Shown one piece after another: positions 1 to 17,982 of a stretch of 19,866 bases of DNA. The position numbers and the translations under genes are program-made. The DNA lies in the IMG/VR virus record IMGVR_UViG_2579778613_000002, positions 1 through 19,866 of that record. The stretch is one strand, 5' to 3'. Source of the stretch: a virus (Duplodnaviria > Heunggongvirae > Uroviricota > Caudoviricetes). How positions within the stretch are numbered: position 1 is the stretch's first letter; every line of letters starts with the position of its first letter. The notes under the pieces are model-generated. The model did no database searches. It worked only from the letters and a program-made list of their open reading frames with translations, and was not told where the DNA came from.

Positions 1-793
<793 letters not shown>

Positions 794-866
794 GTCGTTA
801 ATTCCTATGCGTGGTTTTACGATACCGAAGCCCTGACTGTTACCGCAGTTGGGGCTTCAACTTTCT
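794..866 (+). ncRNA. sar: sar-like small antisense RNA (about 70 nt) complementary to the ant start codon and RBS region
   Basis: Plus-strand promoter-like elements: -35 TTGATA (759-764), 17-bp spacer, -10 TATACT (782-787), predicted start near 794. Hairpin at 827-858 (GAAGCCC / GGGCTTC stem extended by ACTG/CAGT, hexaloop TTACCG) followed by a U-rich run AACTTTCTGCTCT. P22 has an antisense sar RNA of similar size at the equivalent position. Confidence 0.45.
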
Positions 867-1060
867 GCTCTATCAGTTATATCTTTCCCTTCATATACTT
901 CACCTATATTGCTAATGCTGGCAGAACATCCAAGATGCTTGTATCTTATGATGTCCAACACGCAGTCACTACACAGCATCCGACCTGTTTCTTTAGAGTA
1001 AATGTATGTTTGATCAGCGTCTGATTCGCTAATGCCGCAGAAACAACATTCTTTACTCAT
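857..1060 (-). CDS. Small Cys-rich protein (67 aa) with two CxxC motifs, putative zinc ribbon; function unknown
   Basis: ORF-track ORF. Its ATG (1060-1058) overlaps the arc stop in an ATGA arrangement, indicating translational coupling. CxxC pairs at C5/C8 and C30/C33 with a further Cys at 44. A GAGGGG SD-like element lies upstream inside arc. Confidence 0.6.
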   Translation of the reverse strand: MSKECCFCGISESDADQTYIYSKETGRMLCSDCVLDIIRYKHLGCSASISNIGEVYEGKDITDRAES

Positions 1061-1197
1061 ACCGTTATCCCCTCTCTCTTCAGGCTGTCCATCACCCGTT
1101 TAATTACTTCTGCACTAAATGAGCGACACTCTTCCTTTGCTTTCTCTTCAAGGATTTTTTCTAACTTCTCTGGCATACGCAGTGTTTTTACCTTCAT
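1057..1197 (-). CDS. arc: Arc-like ribbon-helix-helix repressor (46 aa)
   Basis: Below the ORF-track size cut-off; found by hand translation from ATG 1197-1195: MKVKTLRMPEKLEKILEEKAKEECRSFSAEVIKRVMDSLKREGITV, ending TGA 1059-1057. Pattern (beta-strand RMP, two helices, ...RVMDSLKREG) resembles P22 Arc. SD GGAGGA is 4 nt upstream of the ATG. Confidence 0.7.
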   Translation of the reverse strand: MKVKTLRMPEKLEKILEEKAKEECRSFSAEVIKRVMDSLKREGITV

Positions 1198-1302
1198 TGC
1201 ATCCTCCGTTGTATGTGGTACGCATACATAGTATTTAGGTACGCATTGATAGTCAATAGATACCTACATATCCTGTGGTAAAAAATTATTCAGGATGCGC
1301 CG
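1198..1302. promoter_or_regulatory. Divergent immI-type control region: Pant-like (minus) and Pmnt-like (plus) promoters with operator-like palindromes
   Basis: Minus-strand promoter: -35 TTGACT (complement of 1251-1256), 17-bp spacer, -10 TACTAT (complement of 1228-1233). Plus-strand promoter: -35 TTGATA (1246-1251), 17-bp spacer, -10 TATCCT (1269-1274). The two -35 hexamers overlap inside the perfect palindrome ATTGA-TAG-TCAAT (1245-1257), which is nested in a larger inverted repeat TAGGTA...TACCTA (1236-1266). Direct repeat GGTACGCAT occurs at 1217-1225 and 1238-1246, 21 bp apart. Confidence 0.55.
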
Positions 1303-1554
1303 ATGTCTGATCGTAAGTACAAAAACCCTCAAGTGAATCTGAGGCTTCCTGTAGAGATAAAGGAACGTCTTATTGAACTGGCTGAGGCTAATTCTCGTTC
1401 ATTAAATGCTGAGATGGTCGCAGCACTTGAAGCATGGACCGAAAAAAACAAACACATTCAAGCACTAGATCTTGCAACTATAGCATCGCGACTGATAGAG
1501 CTTGAGCATGATGTTGAGAAGTTAAAATGTATGCATGGCAATGGTGAAAAATGA
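1303..1554 (+). CDS. mnt: Mnt-like ribbon-helix-helix repressor (83 aa)
   Basis: ORF-track ORF. N-terminus ...NLRLPVEIKERLIELAEANSRSLNAEMVAALEAW has the RHH pattern of P22 Mnt (FNFRMPMEVREKLKFRAEANGRSMNSE...). C-terminal part looks coiled-coil like Mnt. Divergent from arc; SD AGGA at 1292-1295. Confidence 0.75.
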   Translation: MSDRKYKNPQVNLRLPVEIKERLIELAEANSRSLNAEMVAALEAWTEKNKHIQALDLATIASRLIELEHDVEKLKCMHGNGEK

Positions 1555-1868
1555 AACGTATCGCTATCCTATTGCTCCTGTGTCTCTCGAGCATAGCTAA
1601 CGCAGAAACAAAATCAGACGATAGCAGTTTTGATGAAATACAAGGCCTCATGATAGCTTCTAAAATGGCTGGTATGTGTGGTGCAATCAAACAAATGGCA
1701 ATATTCCAAGAATCTACAAACATGCCAGGTGGGAATGAATTCTTACAGAGATTCCTTACTACAGAGCAAGCAAGGCTCGGGATGACTCCGCAGCAATTTC
1801 TTGAAGCATGTCAGAAATCAATCTCTATTTATACCACCTATTACAATATGAGCTCTGAGAAAAAATAG
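1551..1868 (+). CDS. Predicted secreted (periplasmic) protein with cleavable signal peptide (105 aa); function unknown
   Basis: ORF-track ORF. Its ATG overlaps the mnt stop (ATGA), indicating translational coupling. N-terminus MKRIAILLLLCLSSIANA-ETK is a typical Sec signal peptide with an AXA cleavage site. Mature part has two Cys. Confidence 0.6.
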   Translation: MKRIAILLLLCLSSIANAETKSDDSSFDEIQGLMIASKMAGMCGAIKQMAIFQESTNMPGGNEFLQRFLTTEQARLGMTPQQFLEACQKSISIYTTYYNMSSEKK

Positions 1869-1877
1869 ACTAGGATT

Positions 1878-2063
1878 TCAACGGCTTCCGCGTCCCTGAG
1901 TAATTCTGTTGCGGATTTGCTTCTTGCGGTGGTTTAAGCTGGATAGCTTGGCTTCTGCTTCTGATATTTGCGCATCTAGATCTTTAAGCTCAAGATCTGA
2001 AAGTCGCTGGTCAAGCAGGGTTTGATTCAACTCAATGTTGTTCAAACGTTCTTCTATGGTCAT
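1878..2063 (-). CDS. Small charged coiled-coil protein (61 aa); function unknown
   Basis: ORF-track ORF. Strong SD AAGGAG is 5-6 nt upstream of the ATG (ATAAGGAGTAATC-ATG). Sequence is heptad-like and highly charged. Lies immediately downstream of the terminator at 2077-2105. Confidence 0.55.
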   Translation of the reverse strand: MTIEERLNNIELNQTLLDQRLSDLELKDLDAQISEAEAKLSSLNHRKKQIRNRITQGRGSR

Positions 2064-2076
2064 GATTACTCCTTAT

Positions 2077-2105
2077 AAAAAACCCACCTGACGGTGGGTT
2101 TCATT
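2077..2105 (-). terminator. Rho-independent terminator (bidirectional hairpin) downstream of the lipoprotein gene
   Basis: Plus strand reads AAAAAA-CCCACC-TGAC-GGTGGG-TTTCATTTC (stem 2083-2088 / 2093-2098). On the minus strand the hairpin is followed by UUUUUUAU; on the plus strand by UUUCAUUUCUU. Confidence 0.65.
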
Positions 2106-2107
2106 TC

Positions 2108-2539
2108 TTAATCTTGCTTTGTGGACGGTATAAGGGATGCGTTTGCCTCTTTTGGCTTCAAGGTATACATCCCACCATTAAATGGATCAACAGCAAGCCA
2201 ACCAATTAACCCACCAAACACAAGGTTTCCACCAATATACCAACCATTAGCATTGGCTTTGATTGGCAGGGTAACTGGTTCATACCCATCCTTCTCCATA
2301 GTGATCTGGTAGTTCTTTTTGCCAAAATAGCTACCATCTGACTTGGCGAGCGTTACACCTTGTGGGGTCCTACCTTGCGCAACAATCACACCTGACTCAT
2401 CTTTTACCTTAAAGCTCGCGCCAGAAGGATTGCTGTTCACTTGCACAAGTTGCGTTTCATCACCAACAATAGTTGCGCACCCAGATAACATCATAGCGCC
2501 AGCAACGACGCCAATAATCCTCTTCATATCAATTTCCAT
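2108..2539 (-). CDS. Predicted lipoprotein (PEGA-like beta region plus glycine-zipper hydrophobic segment); candidate moron/superinfection-exclusion protein
   Basis: ORF-track ORF. Signal peptide with lipobox: MKRIIGVVAGAMMLSG-C. The true start is probably the ATG at 2527 (MKRIIG...). Middle region (VQVNSNPSGASFKVKDESG...GRTPQGV...KDGYEPV) fits the PEGA-type pattern; C-terminal GWYIGGNLVFGGLIGWLAV is a glycine-zipper-like hydrophobic stretch. Own terminator downstream. Confidence 0.65.
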   Translation of the reverse strand: MEIDMKRIIGVVAGAMMLSGCATIVGDETQLVQVNSNPSGASFKVKDESGVIVAQGRTPQGVTLAKSDGSYFGKKNYQITMEKDGYEPVTLPIKANANGWYIGGNLVFGGLIGWLAVDPFNGGMYTLKPKEANASLIPSTKQD

Positions 2540-2644
2540 ATTTAAAAAACCGGAAACATCCTAATGACAAACCATTCAAATGTGAAGTAGGCAAAAGATG
2601 TTTACTTTTTTCATGGTATCCTGCTCAAAACTAAGGAGGTTGGT

Positions 2645-2833
2645 GTGAAGAAAAAATTTGTAAACGTTGCAAAGTGCGCAATTTTTATATTTTTTATGAC
2701 CTTTTACGGATTTAGTGCCGGAGAAGGTTTCGATCGTGATGCCAATGCATTCAGTTTCTTTTGTCTGTCTATAGTGGTCATAATTGTATGGGTGGAATTA
2801 AAGCAAACATTGTTTCATGTGCTAAGGAAATAA
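2645..2833 (+). CDS. Small hydrophobic membrane protein (62 aa, two predicted TM helices); function unknown
   Basis: ORF-track ORF with GTG start preceded by a strong SD AAGGAGGT (2633-2640). Two hydrophobic stretches (AIFIFFMTFYGF and FFCLSIVVIIVWV). Visibly AT-rich. Convergent with gp16; no convincing promoter found. Confidence 0.5.
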   Translation: MKKKFVNVAKCAIFIFFMTFYGFSAGEGFDRDANAFSFFCLSIVVIIVWVELKQTLFHVLRK

Positions 2834-2850
2834 CCATCCATGGCATTTAG

Positions 2851-4692
2851 TCACTGCTGTGTTGCCTCAGTGGCAAGCAGCGGTCTGATGGCATTTGCAG
2901 CGTTACTTAATGCTCTTTCATAGGCTGGCGTTCCTGCTTTGGTGTTTGCCAGACGTAAGAGCGCATTCCTTGCTGCTTTGGACTCATACAAGCGCATCAT
3001 TGCACCGAAACCAGCCTCAAGCCCCATTGATACGCCAAGAGTCGCAGTTGCGCCAATCGTCCTTATCCTGTTGGCTTGCGATTGCCCCGTCTGAGTTACT
3101 ACATTTGCGGTGTCTGACCTTGCTGTTTGCTGTAGAACTTCATGAAGAGCATCAAGCTCTTTCATGTGCTTTCCAGAAAAAATAGTGTTGTAAATTTCAC
3201 CACCTGACTGAGATTTCAGCTTATTAACTTCAGTGATGAACTTGGCTGGAGAGTCACCGGCCTTTTCCGCTATTTTGCTGACGTAAGCTGCACGCATAGC
3301 ATCTTTCCCTTTATCATCCAGTGCGCTCCAGATTCGTTTCACGTCAGATGGTTTTCTGCTTAATACAACGGTATTTATAAGTTCAGGACTGGCTTCACTG
3401 CTTGCCTTGTTGAGCTTGTTGGCAATGTTTTTATTAAGCACCTTATTATAAACGTTTGCATAATCGGAATTTGCTTTAAGGTATTTTGCTGCGTCTGATG
3501 CACCGAGGTTTTTAGCAACTGCGTTACGAAGGTCTTTTGACATTGCATTCTCTACCATATTGGTAGCTGCTTTTGCCTGGTTGGGGAAGACCATAGCATC
3601 TCCCTGAACATTAGATCTAAATGCTGTTCTGTGCTGACGCAAGAGATCAAACGTAACATCCAAATCAGTTGCAGGGTTTGCTAATTCTTCACGTAGGTTA
3701 CGCAAGGATGTAAGCAGGCTTTGATTGGCAGACGTCCCAAGCCGTTCCTGTCTTGCGATCGCTGTATTCAGAGCATTCATGGTATTTGTGGTATCAACTG
3801 CGGCATTACCCATTTTATTGGTGACGTCATTGATAACAGCGCCAGCGGCATCCTTCCGCCCCCTTAACGTGGTGGTAAGAGATTTCACCACATCATCAGG
3901 GTTGTACTCACCAAAACGGTCAAAATAATTGCTTACCAGCTTACTACGCGTTGCATATTGCTCAGCTCGCTTTGAGCCTGTCCCGAGCAAAGCCCCCTCA
4001 GCATCCTGAGTAAGTCCGCGAGTGAAAGCATTTTTCGGCGGGATAACATCAGATGTCATTGGTGTCACGCCCATCGATTCTGATGTGGCAATTTTCTTCG
4101 CCACTTCTGGCGCAATATCACCTTTTATAGCCGTTATTCCACGCCCTATTCCCTTTGCTGCTGCGGAAAGAACACCCTGAGCGGCAAGGTTAACTCCGGC
4201 ATTTTTAGCTGCATTTTGTGCGAAATCGCCTTTCTGATTTGCGGCCTCTGCCAGTGATCCAATAGCCATGCTTCCTGCCGTTCCAACTCCTGGAACTAAA
4301 TACCCGCCAATTGTTTCTCCAGCTTGCGCATAAGGGTCTGTCGGTCGCTCGACAGGGCGATAAACATCATCCAAAACCTTGGGGCCGCCAAGCCCCTGGC
4401 TGATTGCATTAATCAGACTTGCGCCACCCTGCAATACGTCAAATGGTATGTTTACCAGACCACGACCAGCCTGTTCTGCAATTTGCCCTGCACTTTTACC
4501 ACCTGTGAGCCAATCACCAGCTTGTTGCATCAATGATGGTTCTTCCCGTGTTGGTGCATTATTGGCCTGATTAACTGTTTGTTGCTGAACAGCCTGACCA
4601 GCAAAATACTCATCAATGGCGGTGCCAATATCTTCGGTGCTCGTACCATCAGGAAAGGTAAATGTCTTACCGTTTGCAGTTACTTTCATCAT
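2851..4692 (-). CDS. gp16: Ejection (DNA transfer) protein, P22 gp16 homolog (613 aa)
   Basis: ORF-track ORF. Size and position (last gene of the late operon, after gp20) match P22 gene 16. Gly/Ala/Gln-rich composition typical of ejection proteins. Start overlaps the gp20 stop. Confidence 0.8.
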
Positions 4693-6104
4693 TCCACCGT
4701 AAATTGAATGCCTGATTTTGAGGTATATGACCCAACCTGATTCCGTGGTTCTCCTGAAGGTGTCGAATCTTGTGCTGGCGCTGCGTCAGTATTCATTGAC
4801 ATATACCGCTTAACGGCACTCCCCAATGATTCACCTTTTTTAACATCCAACCCCAATATCTGACCGCCATTACGCGATTGTCCTGGATTGCCATTCGCGC
4901 TCATCCACTCGGCTTTAAACTCATTAAACTGCGCGTTTCGTCGCTCAAGGTTTGCCATCGCATCAAGCCATCTTGCGACCGTCTCAGGGTTATCCATGTC
5001 AGTTGGTGCACCCTGCCGAACGATCTCAACGTCTTTATCCGTTGCGGGGCCGGGAGGTAGGAATTTAAGAACCTGACTGTTAACAAGGGCATTTTGGCGG
5101 ATGCGCAAATCACGCAATGTTGTATCGCTTCCGGTAAGTTTTGCGAACATGTTCTGTGCGTTACCGAACAAACCTGTCGTTGGTTTTTCTGCTCTGAACT
5201 GTTGAGCAAGCGCACTCATGGAATTGGCTGAGTTTGATGATGCTGTAGCATTGTTTACAGCCGTCTCGATGCCTTTTTCCATGTTTACTGACAGCTTAGG
5301 TGCTTCGCTAATCAACTGCTGAGCCTTTTCCTGTGCTTGCTGCATCTTAAACCCGAACTCTTGCTGATCCAGAGCCAAGCGTTGTGCTGCGATATTGTGT
5401 CCAGTCATTGCTGACTGATAGGAAAGGTTTTGCCCTCTCGCCTGAAGTGCTTCTCCAGCCTGATTGCTGCGGATTGTCTCTGCAAGTTTGCCTCGGTCAA
5501 TTTCACGACCAGCCATCTTGTCCTGAACAGCAAACGCCTTTTCTGGTCCAAGCGCACCGAGAGACATAGTAGTCAACATGTGTGATAGCTGCTCTGGATT
5601 ATGGATACCTGTCTGAATCATCCAGTCAGCATTCGCCCCCACGCGATTTAACCTGTCCTTGTTGTCAGTAATGAATTTACTGTAGGCTTCCGGTCCCTGA
5701 GAAAGAGCGACGTTAGCCCTTATGGCTAAATCGCCCATATCGTTGCGTTGCTGATCATTAAGACCGGAAAACGCCTGTTGTGCCTGTGCAACAAACGCTG
5801 GATTTTCCTGGGCAAACTTAAATAGTCCCGATGGATCACCAGAAGCCCATGCATCAGCGTGAACCTTATTGAACGCACTAATCGCTTTCTGTTGCTGTTC
5901 CTGATTGTAAATATCAGCAACTCCAGCCAGACCACGTAACGCGGTCAGACCAACGTTATTTGCACCTGAGCGAGCCAGTTCATTGTTTTCGCGGATCAGA
6001 CCAAGCGTTGCGTTAATGTCGCTTGCCTTTGGCGCATTCTCATTTTGCGTACCGATGCCAGCCAGAAAACCACCAGAATTAATACCCTGTTGCCACGTAG
6101 CCAT
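4689..6104 (-). CDS. gp20: Ejection protein, P22 gp20 homolog (471 aa)
   Basis: ORF-track ORF. Length and position between gp7 and gp16 match P22 gene 20. Confidence 0.8.
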
Positions 6105-6114
6105 TGATTACTCC

Positions 6115-6807
6115 TTAAAACAACGAGCCAAGCAGACCAAGACCGCCGCCGATCGCAGCCCCCCACGGAGTTGATGAACCAATTAATTTCGCAAGTCCGG
6201 CCCCAGCAATAGCACCAGACGCACCTCCGCCAATAGCAGATTGCATTGCTGATGGTCTGTTGGCATTTGCCGCTGCAAGAGCCGCACTTTGCTGCGAAAT
6301 CTGACTCATGTTGTTGGCATATGTCTGCCCGGCGTTTGCCTGACCTTGCAGTGCGCCAAGACCAATATTTGCCAGATTCTGGTAGTTGTTCATCTGACCA
6401 GATAGCCATTGCTGACCAAGCGTTGGTGCGATTGTTGCTAACTGATTACTGGTTGCGGTGGAACCCAATCCACCTGTTGCTTCCGCTGCCGCCAGACTCT
6501 GATAGCGAGCCTGACCAGCAAGATCTTTGTACTGCTGAGAGTTGTAATACTGGTTAAGCGCCTGACCTTGCCCCTCCAGAGACGATAAGTTTTCGAGGCT
6601 TCCGACATACTTATCAGCCAGAGGAGTAAACGGCTTCAGGTTGTTCATGATGGTGTTGAACTGCTGATTTTGCAGGTCTGCTGCATACTTCTGAGCTTCT
6701 GCGGCATACTTTGCGCTTTTATCAGAACTGCCACCTTTCCCACCCTTTTCAGGGCAATAAGGTTCCTCGCCGCGCAGTTTTCTGCCCAGCTTAAATGCAT
6801 ATAACAT
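6115..6807 (-). CDS. gp7: Ejection protein, P22 gp7 homolog (230 aa)
   Basis: ORF-track ORF. N-terminus MLYAFKLGRKLRGEEPYCPEKGGKGGSSDK... and the Gly-rich C-terminal tail match P22 gp7 as I recall it (229 aa). Confidence 0.8.
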   Translation of the reverse strand: MLYAFKLGRKLRGEEPYCPEKGGKGGSSDKSAKYAAEAQKYAADLQNQQFNTIMNNLKPFTPLADKYVGSLENLSSLEGQGQALNQYYNSQQYKDLAGQARYQSLAAAEATGGLGSTATSNQLATIAPTLGQQWLSGQMNNYQNLANIGLGALQGQANAGQTYANNMSQISQQSAALAAANANRPSAMQSAIGGGASGAIAGAGLAKLIGSSTPWGAAIGGGLGLLGSLF

Positions 6808-6809
6808 GG

Positions 6810-7265
6810 CTATCTCCCGTGATTCAGGAAGTCGATTAGTTCTTCGCGTGTGGCGCTGTAAAAAGTCACGTCATCCACGCCTTTAAAGTATTTCTTGATG
6901 GTTCCTACACGCTTAAGGCCAATCATTGCGCAGTACATCTGCCCGTGGCGGAATTTGCGTGCAGCGAACGATGTGACGCACTGAACGGTGGTGTTAGTCA
7001 GAATGTATCGCCAGAACGCCATCCCGATTTCCTTGCTGAATCCGCGAATCTCTGGCAGGTACATGGCGTGGCAATCAAAGGTCAAAGGCTGAATCTCCTG
7101 ATAGTAAACAATTCCGCCGAACTGCCCGTGCACGTTCACCTCAAAGTAACGGCAATCAGGTTTGTAGTCGTATCCATCACCGTTGTTGCTCCCGGCGATA
7201 ATGTCAGGGTGATTTCCGACTGCTTCGATCAGGTCAATGTTTCGCGTTGGTTTGAATGTAATCAT
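6810..7265 (-). CDS. Gene-14-position protein (151 aa); putative head/ejection-protein assembly factor
   Basis: ORF-track ORF located between the tail-needle gene and gp7, where P22 has gene 14. Assigned by synteny and size only; I do not recall the sequence well enough to confirm homology. Confidence 0.5.
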   Translation of the reverse strand: MITFKPTRNIDLIEAVGNHPDIIAGSNNGDGYDYKPDCRYFEVNVHGQFGGIVYYQEIQPLTFDCHAMYLPEIRGFSKEIGMAFWRYILTNTTVQCVTSFAARKFRHGQMYCAMIGLKRVGTIKKYFKGVDDVTFYSATREELIDFLNHGR

Positions 7266-7966
7266 CAGTCAATCAGCCCATGTAATCTAAGTGCCGTTTC
7301 AAGCGCCAGAATACGCTGCCGCGCCTGCTGCAAACCTGTAGCGAGAGATGCGACTTCGGATTGTGTGTACGTAGTGCCGACAGTGTATGACTGGTTAGCG
7401 TTGAATGAGCCAAGAAGTGGCGTACCTGTGGCTGCTGTCCACCCTGTCTGACGAGCACCAATAACCTTGGTGCCGCCGACCGAATAGGATGTTGTTACAT
7501 TGAGGGGAGATGCCAGCGATTGTGTTGCAGTGGCTGTTTTCGATACATAGTCGTCCTGTAATGCAGAAATGTTGCTCTCAGCAGTCGTAACCCGGCCATC
7601 AAGAGCGCTGACGTCAGCCTGTAAAGTGACTATTTCTCCTTCAGCCGTGGTTAGTCTGACATCCAGCTCTGCAATTGCCGCAGTATTCGCAGCAATACGG
7701 ATTTCATGGTCATCTACTTCAATGCGGAGCTGACGAATTCTTTCTTCGTGATCGACCAGAATCACATCCTGCTCATCGTTCCTGACTTGTGCGTCATAAG
7801 CGCCCTGTCCGGCCTCGTTGGCCTTGTTCGCCACGTTACCAACATCAGTACCCTGTGCGATAACGTAAAGCAGATATGACTGCGAGAAGATATTGCGTGG
7901 AAGGATTGATGTATCGAGCTGCGTCGCCTGAACAATAACAGGTGTATTGAGATTCGAATCAGCCAT
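7265..7966 (-). CDS. gp26: Tail needle protein, P22 gp26 homolog (233 aa)
   Basis: ORF-track ORF. N-terminus [43 protein letters not shown] and the central coiled-coil region (RVTTAEGEI...[17 protein letters not shown]) match P22 gp26; same length. Confidence 0.85.
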
Positions 7967-9384
7967 TACTCAATCCTTATCTGGCAGCCAGACAGAGTGA
8001 CAGGTGACTTCGTGATAACACGCAATTTGAAGCCGACATTTTTCCTGATGCGCCCAACTCGCTTCCACAAAACGCGCTTGTCGTAAACGAACGGTTCATT
8101 CTGCTCAATCATCTGCTCACGACCGTAATTGATGCCGTCAGTGGTTGCAGAGAGGAACAGGCGGTCAGCGTACTGAGCGACACCAGTCGATGATTCAACT
8201 TCCAGATCAAAACATCTGGCGTTCTCAGCTTTGAAGAGTGGTGTAAACAACAGGTGTTCTTGCTGTAGTCCATACTGGCTGCTGATATCGAACTGCAATT
8301 TGCCGGTCACGGACTCCAGCTTATCGCCGCACGTTATCTGATTGCCTTCGTAAATAAAGTCGATAGCGCGGTACACATCGTCATACAGTCCAGTTTTCAG
8401 CGCACACCATTGCGGACCATTGGTACTTGAAGATGCGTCGTACACGAGTACATGGCGCGGAAGATGGATAATCAGCAACTCATGCGCATCAAACCGCAGC
8501 GATTCCATCACACCATCAGCCAGTTCATCAGCAGTGTAGGAGCGGAGAATTTTCTCAATGCTCGCGCTGGCGATTGGTGATACCTGACCGGAGCCGATGA
8601 TGTATACAGACGGCGCACCTGTTGCCGGATTGCTGATGAACGCATAAGAATCAGCAAACGGCGTTTTGCAGTAAGTTCCGGCAATACCTTTCTGCACCAT
8701 CAATGATGGCTGTGCGACATACAAAGCGGCACCAGCGGTGGTTGCCCCCGTCAGGGAGAAATATTCAATCGTCGATGAACCAAAGCAGACGATGAAGTCT
8801 CGCCATGTTCCGATGCCGATGATGCCGTCAGGCTGAGACTCTGCACGATATTGTGCGCTGTATCGGTCAGGGTGCGATTCGTCTTCAAGGTCAGTGATAA
8901 ACCATGAATCAGTGCCGTCTTTTGACCACGCATAACGCCCACGCAAGCGCGTAATGTCACGAACCGAACCTAACTCATACTGAGTGAATCCGCTATCTGC
9001 AGGCCAGTTTGAGACGGTTTTAACCGTGCCATCATAGCGATACTCTACCAGTTGACCATTAACGCCTACAGCCTGAGATGTCCGACCATGCGCCATTGAT
9101 ACACGACCACTTCCGGCAACATCACCGACTTCGCTTTCGCCCTTATACAGCTTGCCCCCACACACGCGATATACAGCACTCTGCGCCATGTTGTACTCGA
9201 CGCCGCGCGATATACCGTTCACATCAGAACGTTTGGCAATGCCCGGGAATGAGCGAAGATATCCGCTGCTGTTAAGGATTTCTTTGGGTGTAGCCAGCAT
9301 ATTCACTGGCAGATAGTCGATGTAGTCGGCGTTTCGGAAATCTTTGCCGACACCTTTCATAAGCGGAAGTTGCTGAATCGGCAT
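7966..9384 (-). CDS. gp10: Tail hub / head completion protein, P22 gp10 homolog (472 aa)
   Basis: ORF-track ORF. Length identical to P22 gp10 and position between gp4 and gp26. Confidence 0.8.
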
Positions 9385-9885
9385 TTATTCGCCCCCGTTA
9401 TCGCAAGGTTCCTTCCGGTGGAAGTAATTCCAACCATTCCACTTCGCCAACTGGTTACCGCTACCAACAGGCATACGGTTTGGATAACCGGACTTACATT
9501 TAGCGGCTTTTGCTCTGTCCATTGCAGACAGTTTGACGAGTCGCTCTTTCCCGTATCTGGCAGTGGTTATAAGTTTTGCTGGCGCTTCCAGCGCATAATC
9601 TGGAGCAATGCGGCAGGCAAGGTTGAAAATGACGGCATTGATAGCGTTATTTGATAAACCGTGCTCATCGCCCGGTTCTGGAGCGACATCTGCATCAGCG
9701 AAAATGTAGCCAACGTTGATACCAGGTGACACATCACCGCCAAGCCATTCAGCCATCATCATTTCAAGGTCGTTGACGCCGTCTTCCATAGACTGCGGTT
9801 CTACATCGGTTAACGTGGCATTTGATGCCACACCGAGCTTACGTAATGCCGCAAGAACTAAATCACCCTTCGTTGTCAGGTTCAT
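9385..9885 (-). CDS. gp4: Tail adaptor / head completion protein, P22 gp4 homolog (166 aa)
   Basis: The ORF-track ORF (9385-9966) has a spurious N-terminal extension. Homology to P22 gp4 ([33 protein letters not shown]...) begins at the internal Met, [33 protein letters not shown], giving 166 aa as in P22. Confidence 0.8.
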
Positions 9886-10105
9886 CTGCTGCCGCCTTAG
9901 GTTTTCGACCAGGCTTTTTACGCTGTTTTTCTTCTTGCTCTGGCTCTGGCTCTGACTCTGCAACATCCTTCAGAAGATCATCAGGATGTGCAAACCAGCC
10001 AGCATCCAGATATTCCTGAAGCTCTTCGGCTTTCACGATTTCAAAGTCGTATCCAACGCCTTTCCACTTCTTCATGTTGCCATGGCGAAAGATCATGTGT
10101 GTCAT
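9863..10105 (-). CDS. Small protein with acidic Pro/Glu-rich and basic C-terminal tail (about 80 aa); function unknown
   Basis: ORF-track ORF 9863-10153. Preferred start is the ATG at 10105 ([16 protein letters not shown]...) because SD GGAGA lies 5 nt upstream; alternative starts at 10096 or 10075. Contains an in-frame (GCTCTG)x3 repeat at 9937-9960 encoding EPEPEP. Overlaps the gp4 start by about 23 nt. Confidence 0.45.
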
Positions 10106-10118
10106 GCTTGTCTCCAGA

Positions 10119-10141
10119 TAAAAAAGGGAGCCGAAGCTCCC
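10119..10141 (-). terminator. Rho-independent terminator/attenuator immediately after the coat gene
   Basis: Minus strand reads GGGAGC-UUCG-GCUCCC followed by UUUUUUAU (stem 10126-10131 / 10136-10141). It lies 9 nt downstream of the coat stop codon, inside the late operon. Confidence 0.7.
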
Positions 10142-10149
10142 TCTGGTTA

Positions 10150-11445
10150 TCACGCGGTCTGGTTAGGCAGACCAACACCAATTGCCTCTGGTCGTACAGC
10201 ACATGCTGAATACCACACAGCAATACGGCACTTACCAGACAGAGTGTTGATATCACCCTGCGTTGCGAAGATGCCGTTAACACCAATACCAGGAATGCTG
10301 AAGGAAGACGTTTTCATGCCAGCAAACAGTTCATGGGTTACCGGGATCGGCTGAGACAGCAGACGGATTGAGTCATCAGCCCAGAACACGTTAGCGGTGG
10401 TTGTTGCCACGTTCAGAACGTTTACCGGAGTGGTATCAGCAAGAGAGGTGTTTACGTTAGCGTAAGCCTTCTCTTCTTTTGTCAGTGACGCGTCATCCAG
10501 TGCAATCGGCTTCGGCGTGATTTCGATGTGAGTACCATCGATCACACGGGTGATTGAGAAAGTCGCATCATCAGTCAGCACGTTCTTCGCCATCTGAGAC
10601 AGGAATTTCACACCAGTGAAGCTGATTTTGTCGCCGCGCTTAAATCCGGTGGTGGAGGATACGGTCACCGTTGCAACACGGTTGTCGACGTTCTCTTTGT
10701 TACCATCGGTATCAAGGGTGTATGCCTGCGGCTTAAACTTCTGCGCTCCAGACACAGTTACACCAGTAGCGGTTGACTTGGTAACTGCCGGAAGTTTCGG
10801 TGAGCGAAGAATTTCATCAAAGCCAGCAATCTGACGCTGAATAGTACCGTTGCGATACGCTTCTTCAGGAACGCGCCCAAAGATGTCACCATCTACCAGG
10901 TTGCGGCCTGCTTTGCGGTAATCGTCAGGGTTCAGGAAGTAACTGATGCCCATATCGCGGTTTAGCTCACGGGAGAACATCAGGCGCTCTGCATCAGACA
11001 CAAAATCCCAGCCAGACAGGCCAGTAGATGGACCAATTGCGCGGGTATCGTGAACAACAAGTGAGCCCATTTCGGTTGCCTGTTTGGCAATCGCTGACTC
11101 AATGTTATTCGCCAGTTTTTTGGCGGATGCCTGGATGCGGCGACGGTAAGAACGCTCATCACGCAGGTCATCTGCACGAAGCTCGAAGAAATCGTTATCC
11201 GGATCGCCCATGTTGCACTTCACGGAGAGTTCCAGAATCCCGGTTGCGTTGCCAGTTAAATCCCAGCCAGTCTGGGTTGGCGCTTCCTGCTCAACAGGCA
11301 TCCACACGGTGTTGCTTGAACGCTGCATGGATTCTGCCGGAGGGGTGTATTTTGTCACTTTGGACGCCATTGGCGTCAGGTTCTGGACGGTTTCGATGAT
11401 TTCATCGATAGCGTAAGTAACTAACTGCCCTTCTTTGAGAGTCAT
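10150..11445 (-). CDS. gp5: Major coat protein, P22 gp5 homolog (431 aa)
   Basis: ORF-track ORF. Sequence (...[22 protein letters not shown]...[10 protein letters not shown]...CRIAVWY...[14 protein letters not shown]) closely matches P22 coat protein (430 aa) as recalled; downstream of scaffold. Confidence 0.9.
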
Positions 11446-11512
11446 ATATTGAATACCTTACTTTCTTTATGTGCTATACTATTGTTATATCAACATATAG
11501 CGCATTAGGGTT

Positions 11513-12034
11513 ATGAGCATGGAACTGAATGAATACTTCGAATACCGCGATGGCTCTTTGGTTTGGAAAGCCAGAAGCTCTGAATTTTTCAACAACAAAA
11601 AGAATCGCAACTATCACAACGTTTGGAATGCAAAACACGCTGGGAAAGTTGCTGGTCTTTTAGAAAGCAATGGATATATCCGCATAAGAATTAACGGCAT
11701 TAAGTGGCTAGCACACCGCATCGTATGGGTGATGTTTAACGGAGATATTCCAGAAGGCATGGAAATTGACCATATAAATGGGATTCGCCACGACAACAGA
11801 ATTGAAAATCTTCGTCTTGTGAAAAAATCAGCAAACCAAAGGAATAGAATCAAACTATCTAAAAATAACTCCAGCGGAATATCTGGAGTTTACTTTTGCA
11901 ACACGCGGAAAAGATGGATCGCTCATAAGCGACTGCTTAATGCAAGAGTGCAAAAAGTATGTTCTTCATTCGAAGAGGCGAAAGAAGTAATCAGAAAGTT
12001 TGACGAGGAAAACAACATCACGATATCGAAATAA
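11513..12034 (+). CDS. HNH homing-type endonuclease (NUMOD4-like N-terminus, HNH motif, AP2-like DNA-binding domain), inserted between scaffold and coat genes
   Basis: ORF-track ORF, antisense to the late operon. HNH motif EIDHINGIRHDNRIENLRLV; N-terminal YRDGSLVWK and downstream GISGVYF...KRWIAHK fit the NUMOD4/HNH_3/AP2 architecture of phage homing endonucleases. Start is more likely the second ATG at 11519, which has AGGG 8 nt upstream. Extended -10 TGcTATACT at 11472-11480. Its TAA stop (12032-12034) directly abuts the scaffold stop codon (12035-12037). Visibly AT-rich. Confidence 0.8.
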   Translation: MSMELNEYFEYRDGSLVWKARSSEFFNNKKNRNYHNVWNAKHAGKVAGLLESNGYIRIRINGIKWLAHRIVWVMFNGDIPEGMEIDHINGIRHDNRIENLRLVKKSANQRNRIKLSKNNSSGISGVYFCNTRKRWIAHKRLLNARVQKVCSSFEEAKEVIRKFDEENNITISK

Positions 12035-12946
12035 TTATCGAATTCCTTTATTCAGTTGCGCCTTAAGCTTGCGGTATGTCTCTACATCCCCTTTGTTTGC
12101 TGCCGCTTCCATCTGCTTTTCAATCGCAGATATATTTGCAGCAACAGCGTGTCCCTGAATGGGTTCATCAGGTAACGGGGCTTCTGAAACAGGCTTGGCT
12201 CGAGGCTTGAGAGTTAAACGTTCTGACAGTCGAGTGAGTTCAATCAGCGCGGATTGCCCGTCCATCGCCAGCAACTGGCGTGTTTTCTCAGGATTAGCAC
12301 CAAGGTGATACATGAGAGCGGCGGATTTCTCCGGGAAGAGGCGCATGATGTCGGCACCGACTGCTGGCGGCACCAGTTGCATGAATGCATCCTCTTTCTC
12401 CTGATAGTCAGGGATATTGAGCTTTTCCGCTGCGTCGTAGTGCTTACGGGCTGCCTCGACGTATTGCGCTGATTGCTGGGTGAACTCCTGAGTTTTTCGA
12501 CCCTGCTCGGCGACAGCCTGGCTTCGTGCATCCATAGCCTTGATCTGCCATTCACTGTTTGCCTGCTGGAAGGCAGCCAGTGCGCGGCTCTGGTCATAGT
12601 CGTACTTAGCCAGTGCGTCTTCGGAAAGATAATCGTTAGGGTCTGGTTGTTTTGGTAACTCAGGGCTCACCCGCAGGTGCTCCGGCAACTCTCCACGCTT
12701 AACTGCTTCCATCTGCTGCTCAAGCTCACGCTGGCGTTTGCGTTCGATGCGGCGACGGGCAAATTCAGCATTAGTTGCCGGGTCTTGTTTTGGTTTCTCA
12801 TCGTCTTTCAGGACAATCTCGAAGCCTTCTTCCTGACCTGCGTTGTCGTTGGCATTATCGACAACTAAGCCATCAGCAGATGCCGCTGCATGATTGCCGG
12901 GCAGGGTTAATTCTTCAGAAGCCTGAATGTCGGTGGTTTGGTCCAT
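12035..12946 (-). CDS. gp8: Scaffolding protein, P22 gp8 homolog (303 aa)
   Basis: ORF-track ORF. Same length as P22 gp8 and near-identical stretches (e.g. [12 protein letters not shown]..., ...[49 protein letters not shown]...). Confidence 0.85.
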
Positions 12947-12959
12947 GATTAACTCTCTC

Positions 12960-15128
12960 TTATTGAGGTGTCTCGGCTACTCCGCCGGAGGGGATTTGAA
13001 CTTGACGCATAAGATTCGCGAAATCCATGCGTTGTGAATGAGTCTGGTCTGCATCTTTAAGAAGCAGCTCAGCGTTAGCACGAGCATCTTTGCTGCGCTG
13101 TTGCTGGAATTGACCTACGAGCTTGAGGTACTCACGCAGTTCTGCCTGCTTGTCGAGGTCCATATTGTTGAAGATTTCTGCAATCTTCGCGGCGTTGAGT
13201 TGGTTTTGAGCTTCAACCTTGGCGGCTTCAACCTGAATCTGCGCCTGTTGGTTCTCTGCCTTGAGCAATTCAGCCTGACCTTGCAGAAGGATACCCTGCG
13301 CCTGAATTTGCTCTGCTGATGGCTGCTGCGGCTGCTGTTGAGCCTGCTGTACCATCTCCATCTCTTCAGGTGTTTCTGGTTTCTTCAGCCCCATCATCAC
13401 CAGTTGCTTGTTCGCGTACTCTCGCATCATCTCGACGCCTTTACCGTCAAGCAGCGTGAAGTATTGCAGCATCAGCATCTGGAACTCTGGAGTACCTTGC
13501 GGAACCTTTGTTAGCAACTCCTGAATCTCTGCGCGATTCTGTTCCTTCATACTCTGGAAGGATGGTCCAACGTCTGTATAGCACTCATAGCGACCGCGAA
13601 TGTCGTTGAGTGTGACCACATTGCCGGACTGGTAATCGACAACTTGCGCATAGAGTTGAACGTCTTTCTCGCTTCCATCTTCAAGTGTCAGCGTTACATG
13701 ACGAGGAACGTCATAAATATCGTTGACCATTGAGGCATAAATCTCGCCATCACGTCGCATTGCGGTAGCCAGGTTATCCTGAAACACGTATGTCTCAAGA
13801 TCTGCCCGCATGTTCAGTTGATTGACGGTATCGAAAGCGACCTGAGAGTTTGCCGCCTGCGCATCCACGCCAAGACTAGCCACCTCTTTCACTGCGTTGG
13901 TGGCAGCCTCAAGCATGTAAGCGTTGGCTTGCGGCACTTCAGGGTTTTCCATGTAGGAGATTGGACCAATCGGCAGGTCGTTACCGTTTTCATCGGTCCT
14001 GTTCTGCAGATAGTACGGATAGTCATCATTTCCACCGTACATGTATTCGTAGCCTTCGATTTGCTCAGGGAAGAAGGTCGGTTTCTTCTTCGGTGAACGA
14101 GCAACAATATCGGCGTTGAACGACATGATCATGTTACGAAGGCGCTGACCGTCTTTCGTCAGCCTTACCACTCCTTCGTAGCACTCCTTGTCACCAGCGA
14201 ATGACCATTCGCCATACACTGGAACGATTGGAATATGCTCTCCGGCTATCTTCTCGCGGTCTTTCAGTATCTGCGTGCAGGTGATGATCGACTTATACAC
14301 ACGCCGACGCTTCACCTTGCGCTCTGCTACCTTAATGAATCCACGATTAGCCAGGTCGTCGATGACGTCTTTGATATCCTGCTGGTAATAGCTGACCGGC
14401 TCACCTGTCAGCGGGTCGCGGTAGATGAAGACCTTCTCCTTCTTCTCTTCTACCTCGTAATACTCAGCGACGTAGACGACATCATTCGACACCCACGGGA
14501 ATAGCCATGTATCGTTAGGATTCTGGAAAGATGGCAAGGTATCCGGGTCAATACCGTAATCCTCTGCGAACTCTTTCCAGCCATTGCGCGACAAGGCGTT
14601 AATCACCGTGCAATGCTTAGCGTCGCTCTTATCCATCTGCTTGCTGTTGGCGTCCCATATAACGTGTGAGCAAGCTTCATGGATTGGCAGGCGTCGGATT
14701 ACCTGATTGTTGCTTGTTGGGTCGTTGTCTTCGTACTGCGTGACCAGACGCCATGCACCAACGCCTGACTCTATCTGCTCACGAACGCCAACGTTAACGG
14801 CAATTTTTGCCGTATTATGGCGCATATCAGTACGATACATTCCCATCAACACATCGGCAGCATCAGGATTAGCACCGTCTTTTGGTCGGAAGAGAACGTC
14901 GATAGGGTTCCGGCGCATCTCTGCGACCAGTTTCCTGACCACCGGGCGAACAACATCGAATTGTCCGCGATATTGCAGGGTGGTGTAGTTTGATAGCCAG
15001 TCATCCCATTGGCTTATGCGACTGAAGTATAAATCGTTAGAAGCTTCTGTTCTCGCCTCGTCGGAAGACATCCAATCAACATCGAATGCTTGCAGTATCT
15101 TATTTAATCGCTCTGCGTTGTCAGTCAT
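12960..15128 (-). CDS. gp1: Portal protein, P22 gp1 homolog (722 aa)
   Basis: ORF-track ORF. Strong similarity to P22 portal as recalled (e.g. [56 protein letters not shown], and the C-terminal Gln-rich barrel region). Confidence 0.9.
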
Positions 15129-15147
15129 AACTTTACCGTGATAAAAT
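15118..15147 (+). promoter_or_regulatory. Sigma70-type promoter for the antisense HNH endonuclease gene, overlapping the portal start
   Basis: -35 TTGTCA (15118-15123), 18-bp spacer, extended -10 TGaTAAAAT (15139-15147). Followed by SD AGGAG (15166-15170) 8 nt before the GTG start at 15179. Confidence 0.5.
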
Positions 15148-15178
15148 CAATGGGACAACTTCAACAGGAGATTCTATT

Positions 15179-15679
15179 GTGAGCCATCCATCTATAGAAG
15201 ATATAAGGAAAAATTTCACATACGATGCTGAAACCGGAATTTTGTACGCGGCTAATCGCACAAGGAGGACAGACCTTAACGGCAAGCCAGTTGGGTGCCA
15301 GCATGGAAACGGATACCTTGATGTAAGGCTTGGTAAAAAACTGTACTACGTGCACAGAATTTGTTTTGCGCACTACTATGGTTACTGGCCCGAAGCAGTA
15401 GATCACATAAACGGAAACCGTGCTGATAACCGCATCTGTAATCTTAGAGATGCCAATAAGCAGTTGAACGGACTAAACCGTGGCATGGATTGCGACAATT
15501 CAACTGGATACAAAGGAGTTTCCTATCGCAAGGACACAAATAACTACATGTGGCAATTTGTGGTAGAAGGCAAGAAATACACAAAAAGCGGATTCGCTAC
15601 AGCATTAGATGCATACAAGCATAAGGTAGCATTTATTAACGCTCTGAATTCCGCTGCCTCTGAATTTCTCAAGCCGTAA
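15179..15679 (+). CDS. HNH homing-type endonuclease (paralog of the 11513-12034 gene), inserted between TerL and portal genes
   Basis: ORF-track ORF with GTG start, antisense to the late operon. HNH motif AVDHINGNRADNRICNLR; same domain order as the other HNH gene (NUMOD4-like FTYDAETGILY, HNH, AP2-like GYKGVSYRK...MWQF). Ends 9 nt from the TerL stop codon. AT-rich. Confidence 0.8.
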   Translation: MSHPSIEDIRKNFTYDAETGILYAANRTRRTDLNGKPVGCQHGNGYLDVRLGKKLYYVHRICFAHYYGYWPEAVDHINGNRADNRICNLRDANKQLNGLNRGMDCDNSTGYKGVSYRKDTNNYMWQFVVEGKKYTKSGFATALDAYKHKVAFINALNSAASEFLKP

Positions 15680-15688
15680 CAACAGTAT

Positions 15689-17191
15689 CTATCTTGTTGA
15701 CCGTGCGATGGGCCTGATTGGGGCTGGTATCTTTTTCTCTTTTGGTTTTTTGATGTCGCGCATCATTTTTGCGAAGCGGCGCATCATGTATGCATAGCGA
15801 ACGGCGGATAGCACGTCGTCGTTAAGCTTGACGATTTTCCCGTTTTCATCGCGGTGATAGAGGCGGAACTCCTCAAAGAATGGCTCACAGGTGTTGAATA
15901 CTTTGAAGCGACCATCAAGCATCATGTCGCGCAATTCAGTGATTCCAGGCTCCACCGCGTTACCGCCATCAGGCCATGTCGCATGCTCCTGCAACATCAT
16001 AAAACCAGCATCTGCATACTGCCCTTTGAGCTGCTCACCGCCGCCCTTCTCGTGCTGGTTTCCGTCATGAGGCCATGCTGTTGGCACTTTATGCGCCCAT
16101 GATTTAACAGCTCCCCATGCCTGAACGGCTGTTTTTTCTTTCGCCTTCCACACGCGTGAAACGTAGATTGTGTCTGCGTCCTTATCCCACCAAAGCTGAA
16201 CCTGCGCCTGTGGGTGATCCCATCCGAAATCCATCCCGCCAATTACGTAGAAGTGATCAGGACACTCGAACGGCTGACACTTAATCGTCTCTTCCGGTAT
16301 CTGGAATATTCGCCCGCTACCCATCGTAGGAATACCGCGAGCACGCGCCTCTCTCTCATGCTCAGGATAGGATGCGATGATTTGCTCTTTCTGCTCGTCG
16401 GTGTAGTGCTCAGCGTCATAGATGGTCATGTTGACCACTTTCTGAGACTTGCTGGGATTCTTCAGGAACTTGGTAACAACGTCAGACATCCCCATCAGCG
16501 GGGTAAACGTCAGAATTGAGAATTGCCCGTATTTGTTGGTACGGGTAAGACCTTCGCCATAAATGCTGTATGGTGGCTCTTCGTCAAACCACACGCCGTG
16601 GATTGTGTCACCCTGCCAGCGAGCACGGCCTTGCGAGTATGGCTTGAAGTAGCAGATTGAAATGCCATCTTCAACGCCATCAGCCGTGTGATGCTTAACC
16701 AGAAGATGATCAACAAGGTTCGGAAAGAAAGGAGACTTCTTCCAGCTAATGATGTCTTCTTTAGGTATGGAACCGTAGCCTGGCTCATCATTCTCTTCGA
16801 TACGACCACACAGGATGCGTTGAGTCGTTTTGGTTACAGTCTCGTTTGTCTCGCCGCCAATCCAGAAGACAACAGGCTCATAGAAACGCTTACCTTTCCA
16901 CTCCCCACCATATTTACCATCAGCCGGATAGCCTTTTGTTCCCGGATAACGCCCGGTAAGGTGAAACGCGACTTCAGCAGCACCAGTAAATGACTTACCA
17001 AGCTGGTTACCAGCCATAAAACAGCGCTCTGGATAGTCATGCCCGGCGTCGATGAACTCACGCTGTTTGCTGTATGGCGTAAATTCATATAGCAGGTGTG
17101 TGTTCCGGTAGTTCTCTTCTTCTTCGAGTAGCTCGAGCAATTCTATTTGCTCTTCGTCGCTCAGGTTATCAAGAATCGCGTCCAGTTCCAC
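15689..17191 (-). CDS. gp2: Terminase large subunit, P22 gp2 homolog (500 aa)
   Basis: ORF-track ORF. N-terminus [70 protein letters not shown]... matches P22 TerL as recalled, with a Walker A-like GNQLGKS. Start overlaps the TerS 3' end. Confidence 0.9.
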
Positions 17192-17663
17192 GGTTGAATA
17201 GCTCCTTGATACGAGAGCGTCGCTTATCGCGATCTCCCTTATCAGGTGTCACGTCTTCAACTTGCGACTGCTCTTTGAGGCCCAAATCACGGGCGATAAT
17301 GTTAGCGTTGAGAAGGTCAGCGGCTGCGCCAGAGAATTTCTGGTCGTAGATGACCTGCTCTGCTCGCGTAACGACTTCAGATAAATCTTCTCGCAGGCGA
17401 TATGTGCGCCATGTTTCAAGAGTCACATCAATGAACAGAGTGAGGCCGGTAATGGTCATCGCTCGCATCTTGGCGATAGGCTCTTGTATCACTTCACCCT
17501 GATACGAGAACGCCTTCATCTCCCATAGCGGGTTAGCTTCTACCCACTCGAAGTATTCACAACAAGCAGCCCACAGCGCCTCAGGCGATTCGAATTTAGG
17601 ATTTCGCCCATGACTACTGCGGGCCTCCCAAAATCGGTTGCCCTTTGGTGCTGCCATATTCAT
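17169..17663 (-). CDS. gp3: Terminase small subunit, P22 gp3 homolog (162-164 aa)
   Basis: ORF-track ORF. Sequence (M)[51 protein letters not shown]... matches P22 gp3 as recalled. The start may be the ATG at 17657 rather than 17663. Confidence 0.85.
17369..17390 (-). other. pac: pac site (headful packaging initiation sequence) within the TerS gene
   Basis: Minus strand reads GAAGATTTATCTGAAGTCGTTA, encoding EDLSEVV of TerS. This matches the 22-bp P22 pac sequence as I recall it, at the expected place inside gene 3. Confidence 0.5.
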
Positions 17664-17692
17664 CTCACTTATTTGTTATTTCAGGTTGAGCA

Positions 17693-17935: not shown

Positions 17936-17956
17936 TGTTGGCTCCGTTTATCCGTT

Positions 17957-17982
17957 AAAAGGGATATCAGTTAAGTTATCCC
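17957..17982 (-). terminator. Weak terminator- or attenuator-like hairpin between the gp49/gp66-like gene and the 80-aa ORF
   Basis: Inverted repeat GGGATA-N10-TATCCC (17961-17982), followed on the minus strand by UUUUAACGG. A second inverted repeat AAGCCATT-N20-AATGGCTT lies at 17994-18029. Confidence 0.3.

Follow-up and report, generated by a model that had tools for sequence, protein, structure and literature searches.

A small gene predicted to encode a ClpX-type zinc finger in a variable cargo slot of a P22-type immI region

Introduction

The immI region of phage P22 (mnt / Pant-arc-ant / sar) is a textbook regulatory module, and its repressors Arc and Mnt have become model proteins. The work of Susskind, Youderian and Sauer on P22 describes transcription from Pant right after infection, its shut-off by Arc and its repression by Mnt in lysogens. 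Yet in the record of phage CUS-3 the arc gene and the open reading frame (ORF) that follows it are unannotated. Here we describe this ORF, orf67, which encodes a protein of 67 amino acids (aa), in a 19,866-nucleotide (nt) stretch of DNA from a virus of the class Caudoviricetes (positions 1 to 19,866 of IMG/VR virus record IMGVR_UViG_2579778613_000002); we refer to the whole of this stretch as the window. We consider it highly probable that orf67 is a real gene, that its product is a zinc finger of the ClpX type, and that the gene occupies a slot of variable content.

The described domain closest to the ORF67 protein is the N-terminal domain of ClpX (PF06689; PDB 1OVX, 2DS5-2DS8), whose treble clef with four cysteines in a CxxC…CxxC arrangement has a likely counterpart in ORF67. 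Lambda O, SspB, RssB and trigger factor all bind ClpX at a hydrophobic patch formed by F16 and I46 (PMC7804408). A related fold is found in CsfB/Gin of Bacillus subtilis (PDB 5N7Y), a small free-standing treble-clef finger whose nearest structural relative is the ClpX N-terminal domain, and which is a stoichiometric inhibitor that works purely through protein binding (PMC5890618). Prophages of Escherichia coli and Salmonella encode a canonical stand-alone 'ClpX C4-type zinc finger protein' (WP_047668240.1, 60 aa), which shares with ORF67 the genomic slot, the size class and the fold family. With respect to architecture only, the locus also resembles acr-aca operons, in which variable small cargo is found beside a conserved small autorepressor; however, in immI the cargo follows the gene of the repressor, to which it is translationally coupled.

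The gene orf67

The ORF and the two parts of its product are located as follows.

857..1060, minus strand: orf67, a 67-aa ORF from the ORF listing, third cistron of the Pant operon (arc-orf67-ant) and cargo of the arc-sar slot
929..1060, minus strand: residues 1-44, predicted ClpX-N-domain-like treble-clef C4 zinc finger with ligands C5, C8, C30 and C33 and an extra conserved C6
860..928, minus strand: residues 45-67, C-terminal tail, acidic and disordered by prediction

The original prediction, made from the letters of the DNA alone, described a 67-aa ORF at 857-1060 with the CxxC pairs C5/C8 and C30/C33 and an ATG that overlaps the stop codon of arc. The ORF listing and the translation agree with this description. 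The protein has the sequence MSKECCFCGISESDADQTYIYSKETGRMLCSDCVLDIIRYKHLGCSASISNIGEVYEGKDITDRAES; it begins with MSKECCFCG, ends with DRAES and has cysteines at positions 5, 6, 8, 30, 33 and 45, which include the pairs C5xxC8 and C30xxC33. The ATG (1060-1058) overlaps the TGA of the upstream ORF (1059-1057) as ATGA, and Pfam identifies the upstream ORF as Arc. A GGGG run that resembles a Shine-Dalgarno sequence is located 8 nt 5' of the ATG, and the TGA stop of orf67 forms the first three bases of the sar-terminator hairpin. The length of 67 aa is by itself uninformative, as the first 4 kb of the window contain 33 ORFs of 30 aa or more.

The exact ORF67 protein is encoded on at least 1000 public contigs, mostly from E. 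coli and a few from Salmonella, and its public name is always 'hypothetical protein'. Over its full length it matches phrog_7150, a family of unknown function. CUS-3 is the only member of the phage collection that carries ORF67, and the ORF is unannotated there. The complete arc-orf67-ant stretch is present in 56 of 5426 complete E. coli genomes, and in the E. coli genomes inspected orf67 is not called by RefSeq. In IMG/VR, 28 of 39 copies of orf67 are intact, and these alleles differ from the window at two nucleotides at most, with flanks that diverge by ~10%; the five variable sites among the ORF67 alleles are too few for their ratio of nonsynonymous to synonymous substitution rates (dN/dS) to be informative. 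More distant relatives, with 26-37% identity, occupy the same genomic slot: the Salmonella proteins P0014 and P0019 (both 68 aa) and a 63-aa variant, all of which keep the pattern M-x-x-x-CCFCG...SK-T...C-x-x-C. The overlap with arc as ATGA is retained in all intact copies of orf67. The wide occurrence of the exact sequence, the retention of the motifs at about 30% identity, the Shine-Dalgarno-like run and the ATGA overlap together argue that orf67 is a real gene.

An alternative explanation is that orf67 has no function, and is either a decaying remnant or a chance frame in the arc-ant spacer. In several hundred O55:H7/O157:H7 genomes orf67 is frameshifted by a common one-base insertion in the codons for CCFCG, which together with the missing RefSeq calls, the annotation of the CUS-3 record as 'boundary sequence', and a dN/dS of about 1 between Salmonella alleles would fit this explanation. 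However, the prophage that harbors the frameshifted copies is lambdoid and defective, and the O157:H7 copy inspected (FDAARGOS_293, L004 2001-2427) has a premature stop in arc in addition to the frameshift in orf67. The near-identity of the intact IMG/VR copies between more divergent flanks, the retention of the four zinc ligands, CCFCG and SK-T at ~30% identity in three sequence types, the start by ATGA or GTGA and the end at the hairpin TGA in all intact cargo genes, and a confident model with a specific fold (see below) also speak against it. We therefore regard a functionless orf67 as highly improbable.

The immI unit of the O55:H7 (L063) and O157 genomes is located within a lambdoid tail-gene region and not in a P22-like genome; its neighbors in O157 are genes for minor tail protein L and a C40 peptidase, and nleL is nearby.

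Similarity to the ClpX N-terminal domain

Profile comparison and structure prediction identify residues 1-44 of ORF67 as a putative divergent, free-standing treble-clef C4 zinc finger of the ClpX N-domain type. As reference we used an alignment of nine genuine ClpX-type domains, taken from E. coli ClpX, from its homologues in phages and from stand-alone fingers of phages. Comparison of the ORF67 family with this alignment by hhalign resulted in probabilities of 90.9% and 89.7% with an E value of about 1e-6; the match extends over 30-40 columns, covers both zinc knuckles, and places C5, C8, C30 and C33 of ORF67 in the ligand columns of ClpX. As a control, the non-ligand columns of the ClpX alignment were permuted 100 times with the cysteines preserved. 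The score of 32-33 for the real alignment dropped to 12.9±2.7 (maximum 20.2) for the permuted ones and thus lies about 7 standard deviations above them, which reveals that the similarity between ORF67 and ClpX exceeds the four shared cysteines. The suggestion that the double CxxC is the signature of a zinc finger is borne out by this profile-profile match and by the match in predicted fold to ClpX's zinc-binding domain.

Further comparisons point in the same direction. ORF67 matches phrog_5259 (6.7e-5), which is also the top match of the canonical 60-aa ClpX-type finger (1.2e-7), and UniRef names P0019, the Salmonella cousin, 'ClpX-type ZB domain-containing protein'. For P0014, P0019 and the 63-aa variant the Pfam family zf-C4_ClpX (PF06689) is the sole match, below threshold, and for ORF67 it is one of two; the relatives of ORF67 score 10.2-18.9 bits with this family, less than the threshold requires. 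The ClpX N-domain and ORF67 have the motifs C-x-F-C-G and (I/L)-C-x-x-C-(V/I) in common. In the hhalign alignment F7 of ORF67 is placed opposite F16 of ClpX, and the sequence DIIR in ORF67 matches the DIIR of ClpX, which holds I46; the latter correspondence is seen by eye only and needs a three-residue gap that hhalign did not place. Both correspondences are consistent with a ligand-binding role of ORF67.

The structure predicted by AlphaFold2 for full-length ORF67 is poor, with a predicted local distance difference test (pLDDT) value of 55 and values below 50 for residues 39-67, and it has only generic treble-clef structural matches. The model for residues 1-46 reaches a pLDDT of 81.3, and its treble-clef fold is superposable on the ClpX N-domain; however, one of the five rows in the input alignment for this model was a canonical ClpX-type finger. 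The tail (residues 45-67) diverges in alignments with the Salmonella and 63-aa relatives. ORF67 is not followed by an AAA+ ATPase module; the protein stops at 67 residues, and ant comes next. In contrast to ClpX, the finger in ORF67 is thus free-standing, phage-encoded and, as inferred from P22, probably under the control of Pant and Arc.

Several observations weigh against the assignment to the ClpX type. Residues 1-44 score only 11.7 bits with zf-C4_ClpX (E value 0.26), and the threshold of 27 bits is not reached; with full-length ORF67 the family is not among the Pfam matches at E<=1, and NCBIfam returns no match. The zinc knuckles are 21 residues apart in ORF67 and 18 in ClpX, a three-residue insertion, and ORF67 is without the fifth conserved cysteine of ClpX. 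A further difference is the extra conserved Cys6. The canonical 60-aa finger, whose gene likewise starts on the stop of arc and ends at the hairpin TGA, does reach the Pfam threshold (42 bits; E value 5e-8 to 1OVX), unlike ORF67, and the two proteins are 29% identical over 31 residues only.

CsfB has no detectable sequence relationship to ORF67, is a weaker structural match to it than ClpX itself, and is a sporulation protein of a Gram-positive bacterium that is not phage-borne.

Database searches returned few relatives. A phmmer search with ORF67 against 1.84 billion representatives gave 13 matches, of which only P0014 is a true relative; the other 12 are long multi-repeat proteins, and the two that were inspected (one TPR-type, one with Ig-like repeats) match the low-complexity tail. 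Word-indexed searches with ORF67 retrieved near-identical clusters plus P0014 and P0019 only, and the same search with the canonical 60-aa finger added no relatives. A sequence search of the PDB with the profile of the ORF67 family found nothing significant, and a scan of genome contigs with the family alignment gave no confirmed locus. A relationship to activators of the Ogr/Delta type, which had come into consideration through similar size and cysteine spacing, was rejected, as Pfam finds no Ogr_Delta match at E values up to 10.

The surrounding immI region

The following features surround orf67.

1057..1197, minus strand: arc, encoding a 46-aa ribbon-helix-helix repressor (Pfam Arc, 37 bits, cutoff 20.4)
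1..793, minus strand: 5' part of ant (antirepressor), which runs off the window (P22_AR_N 150.8 bits, P22_AR_C 61.3 bits)
1303..1554, plus strand: mnt, encoding an 83-aa repressor of the Arc/Mnt family (Pfam Arc, 40.2 bits; phrog_795, 1.7e-24)
795..862, plus strand: sar antisense RNA (Rfam RF00262, 85.7 bits, gathering threshold 43, model positions 1-68 of 68)
826..859, minus strand: sar-terminator hairpin of 34 nt, TGAAGCCCCAACTGCGGTAACAGTCAGGGCTTCG, the 3' boundary of the cargo slot
759..787, plus strand: Psar-like promoter within the 5' end of ant, TTGATA-17-TATACT, 10/12 matches with a TG extension, by consensus only
1228..1274: overlapping divergent promoters from a consensus scan, Pant-like at 1256-1228 (minus strand) and Pmnt-like at 1246-1274 (plus strand)

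The region is a complete P22-type immI, with Arc, Ant, Mnt and sar in the order of P22, plus one extra cistron. Order and orientation of these elements and of the promoter-like sites are the same as in P22, and the hairpin together with the start of ant is about 83% identical to P22. The position of the Psar-like site is that of the annotated Psar of epsilon34, and the arrangement of the Pant-like and Pmnt-like sites agrees with the Pmnt/Pant annotation of that phage; promoter-like matches are nevertheless not in excess in the immI region (3, against 3.7±1.9 in shuffled sequence). The RNA sar is complementary to the ribosome-binding region of ant, and with its 3' end it covers the final 6 nt of orf67. 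The Arc protein in the window has 46 aa and ends in …SLKREGITV, whereas the P22 protein ends in …SFKKEGRIGA; the same arc is labeled 'Arc family DNA-binding protein' by RefSeq in STEC346. The assertion that orf67 lies in an immI operon of the P22 type and is additional to the P22 arrangement thus holds: in P22 and epsilon34 arc is followed by the sar terminator and ant with no gene in between.

According to Villafane et al. 2008 (PMC2629481), the ant morons of the CUS-3 type apparently lack arc. In the CUS-3 record (CP000711.1, L001 3759-4240) the whole stretch from arc to orf67 is annotated as 'bsq2 boundary sequence', but a 46-aa arc and orf67 are both present and both unannotated. The short arc and the orf67 of regions of the CUS-3 type have evidently been overlooked before.

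Many of the loci with ORF67 match the window only leftwards of about window position 1140, inside arc. A mosaic breakpoint is located within arc: the C-terminus of arc and the cargo are exchanged independently of the N-terminal half and the promoter/operator region.

The arc-sar cargo slot

In an alignment of the junctions the hairpin TGAAGCCCCAACTGCGGTAACAGTCAGGGCTTCG is invariant between the window, P22, epsilon34, AR_0118, a Salmonella locus and O157. We scanned IMG/VR for this hairpin, which yielded at least 119 contigs (loci L064-L182), a sample and not the total, and sorted the 113 assessable loci by the content that precedes the hairpin. The slot is empty in 62 loci, contains the 12-codon remnant described below in 3, and is occupied in 48 by at least 8 types of cargo. 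These occupants are listed below.

ORF67, intact: 15 loci
ORF67, frameshifted: 4 loci
57-aa protein (phrog_17642): 9 loci
89-aa membrane/coiled-coil protein (phrog_27312): 7 loci
73-aa protein (phrog_11805): 6 loci
80-aa protein (weak FlbD-like match, 21.5 bits): 2 loci
74-aa CxxC…CxxC protein (zf-C4_ClpX, 18.9 bits): 2 loci
canonical 60-aa ClpX-type finger (one truncated): 2 loci
63-aa CCFCG variant: 1 locus

The junction between arc and sar is a recombination-bounded cargo slot for interchangeable small genes, and its bounds are the conserved 3' end of arc (…SLKREGxxx-stop) and the sar-terminator hairpin. All intact cargo genes have an ATGA or GTGA start on the stop of arc and use the hairpin TGA as their own stop. 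Of the 48 occupied slots, 24 encode ClpX-like fingers, which fall into four sequence types. E. coli AR_0118 has a genuine zf-C4_ClpX protein of 60 aa in the slot (42 bits; E value 5e-8 to 1OVX), phages Emek and 611R6 carry a 73-aa protein, and phiv205-1 carries a 57-aa protein. The original prediction had raised the possibility that the ORF is variable cargo, and the comparison of the 113 loci reveals just such variability. Turnover of the cargo can be observed directly in WP4-S18-ESBL-08 (L062, about 650-715), which has the arc and ant of the window but only a 12-codon ORF, VIRLDAAKKSKQ, in the slot. It derives from the 57-aa gene of phiv205-1 by loss of an internal part, apparently between two LDA repeats; a remnant of a different cargo between unchanged arc and ant genes is direct evidence that cargo is replaced.

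None of the papers searched describes stand-alone ClpX fingers of phages or an arc-sar slot, and searches for a connection of antirepressors with ClpXP returned nothing relevant. The slot is previously undescribed; the ORF67 family is already present in databases, without a name, and the type of domain is known. A precisely bounded slot, from the stop of arc to the sar terminator, exchanges small genes, and half of its occupants are ClpX-like fingers.

The cargo assorts independently of the types of Arc and Ant. ORF67 is found with at least two types of Arc and at least three types of the Ant N-terminal part, types that are likewise found beside different cargo and beside empty slots. This bears on the explanation that ORF67 is a regulator in the immunity circuit, either as a CsfB-like dimer that inactivates a C2-type repressor, Mnt, Arc or a sigma factor, or as a helper or stabilizer of Ant. 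The position of orf67 between arc and ant, in an operon dedicated to antirepression, is what one would expect of such a regulator. However, the circuits of P22 and epsilon34 run without a gene in the slot, and together with the mixing of types this makes a dedicated partner among the Ant or Arc proteins unlikely. The independent assortment from Ant types argues against an obligate Ant-specific partner, and a role of ORF67 as an Ant-specific cofactor, which we had considered, is weakened accordingly. Overall, we consider the regulator explanation improbable.

A second alternative follows the original prediction more closely. As anti-defense cargo, ORF67 would be a small protein that stoichiometrically inhibits the immunity of the host or of a resident prophage, made in an early burst and then shut off by Arc, similar to the products of acr-aca operons. 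The hypervariability of the slot, with its cargo types shuffled between types of Arc and Ant, is consistent with this explanation, as is the occurrence of the same arc and ant flanks with the 12-codon remnant of another cargo. The ant morons of relatives also carry genes of the defense and toxin-antitoxin kind, encoding a Panacea domain and HicA/HicB. Between the Salmonella alleles dS is 0.076 in the cargo and 0.69 in the adjacent arc, which suggests a recent transfer of the cargo as a cassette; dN/dS for this pair is about 1.2 in the cargo and 0.17 in arc, which would also fit anti-defense cargo, although with 17 differences the result is not significant. On the other hand, ORF67 has no link to anti-CRISPR, anti-restriction or other anti-defense families in the searches made: PADLOC, a library of defense and not of anti-defense systems, has no match for ORF67, its relatives or the ClpP-like neighbor described below, and no anti-defense role of a ClpX-like finger turned up in the literature searches. 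In addition, half of the occupied slots share one fold, which makes them less diverse than typical acr loci. We regard anti-defense as unlikely, but it does not exclude a role as ClpX mimic, and the two are compatible if the targeted defense depends on ClpXP. If the anti-defense explanation were true, then immI would join acr-aca as a positional guide to such genes.

Possible function of ORF67

The predicted fold points to an idea more specific than anti-defense in general, namely a mimic of the ClpX N-domain or a binder similar to CsfB. The best explanation for the whole of the observations is, tentatively and with a chance somewhat short of one half, that a third cistron of the Pant operon encodes a ClpX-type finger that acts as an N-domain mimic. 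Early expression of orf67, limited by Arc, is a fair inference from the analogy to P22. In the arc-orf67-ant operon translation of orf67 is coupled to that of arc; the protein would be made in a short burst from Pant upon infection or derepression and then be shut off by Arc, and the gene would be silent under Mnt in the lysogen. Translation of orf67 should not be blocked by sar, because sar pairs with the ribosome-binding region of ant, which is located downstream of orf67.

Judged by its fold, ORF67 may be a small zinc-stabilized protein-binding module. As a stoichiometric binder that imitates the ClpX N-domain, it could act in either of two ways: it could sequester a ligand of the ClpX N-domain, such as the tail of an adaptor or an N-domain-dependent degron, or it could pair with the ClpX N-domain itself. 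The outcome would be a transient change in the choice of substrates by ClpXP during the first minutes of infection, to the benefit of the phage. The isolated N-domain of ClpX, provided in trans, reportedly blocks the degradation of N-domain-dependent substrates (work attributed to Wojtyra 2003, JBC, and Thibault 2006, PNAS). This report and the stoichiometric inhibition by CsfB lend support to mimicry of the ClpX N-domain, which is the mode of action that we favor, although considered by itself it is less likely than not. If true, mimicry would be a way, new for viruses, to tune an AAA+ protease of the host.

Other observations make this mechanism less convincing. It rests on a resemblance in predicted fold and on genomic position. 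The authors of the CsfB structure point out that a fold similar to the ClpX N-terminal domain need not extend to the binding partners (PMC5890618). The 57-aa, 73-aa, 80-aa and 89-aa cargo proteins are not zinc fingers, which suggests that a ClpX-related function is not dictated by the slot. A gene for a ClpP-like protein downstream of mnt might have supported a tie between the finger and ClpXP; however, phiv205-1 has this gene together with non-zinc cargo and PhiR12_1 has it beside an empty slot, and we discarded it as specific support.

Going one step further, ORF67 and its three sister types could be decoys of the ClpX N-domain, the first to be encoded by phages, with the slot as a dedicated site for host takeover or counter-defense that Arc autoregulates in the way of acr-aca. 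This proposal appears fairly unlikely to us. If it were true, a virus would selectively blind ClpXP to adaptor- or N-domain-dependent substrates and leave the protease otherwise uninhibited.

The ClpP-like gene (PF00574, 178 aa) and the end of mnt overlap in Salmonella prophages as well as in the E. coli phages phiv205-1, EC.P3, E212 and PhiR12 (L006-L011, 2967-3503, minus strand; L058, 2501-3037; L059, 2501-3037). By eye, its product has Ser and His at the catalytic positions of ClpP. The gene would be expressed from Pmnt in the lysogen.

Other observations in the window

Two ORFs with HNH_3 domains (PF13392) are located in the late region: one of 173 aa (78 bits; 11513-12034, plus strand) between the coat and scaffold genes, and one of 166 aa (50 bits; 15179-15679, plus strand) between the genes for the portal and the large terminase. 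Both are antisense to the late operon and look like free-standing homing-endonuclease insertions. A similar HNH_3/AP2 gene is found between ant and tailspike in AR_0118 and in Salmonella relatives.

Rfam detects an int-alpA RNA (RF02996) at 18757-18819 on the minus strand (41.8 bits, gathering threshold 35.8). Its location is unexpected, as the match is flanked by a gene similar to gp66 of Sf6 (18039-18479) and by Rz (19177-19665).

Downstream of mnt, a 105-aa ORF (1551-1868, plus strand), whose ATG overlaps the mnt stop as ATGA, encodes a protein with an N-terminus that resembles a signal peptide, MKRIAILLLLCLSSIANA. The protein matches phrog_19844 and has no Pfam match; presumably the gene is a moron that is expressed in the lysogen and whose product is secreted. 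The variable region between gene 16 and mnt contains two further ORFs, both on the minus strand: a 143-aa ORF (2108-2539) with a lipobox-like LSGC and no Pfam match, and a 61-aa ORF (1878-2063), which is coiled-coil-like, matches phrog_7586 and has a weak match to PbeC in PADLOC (E value 7e-4).

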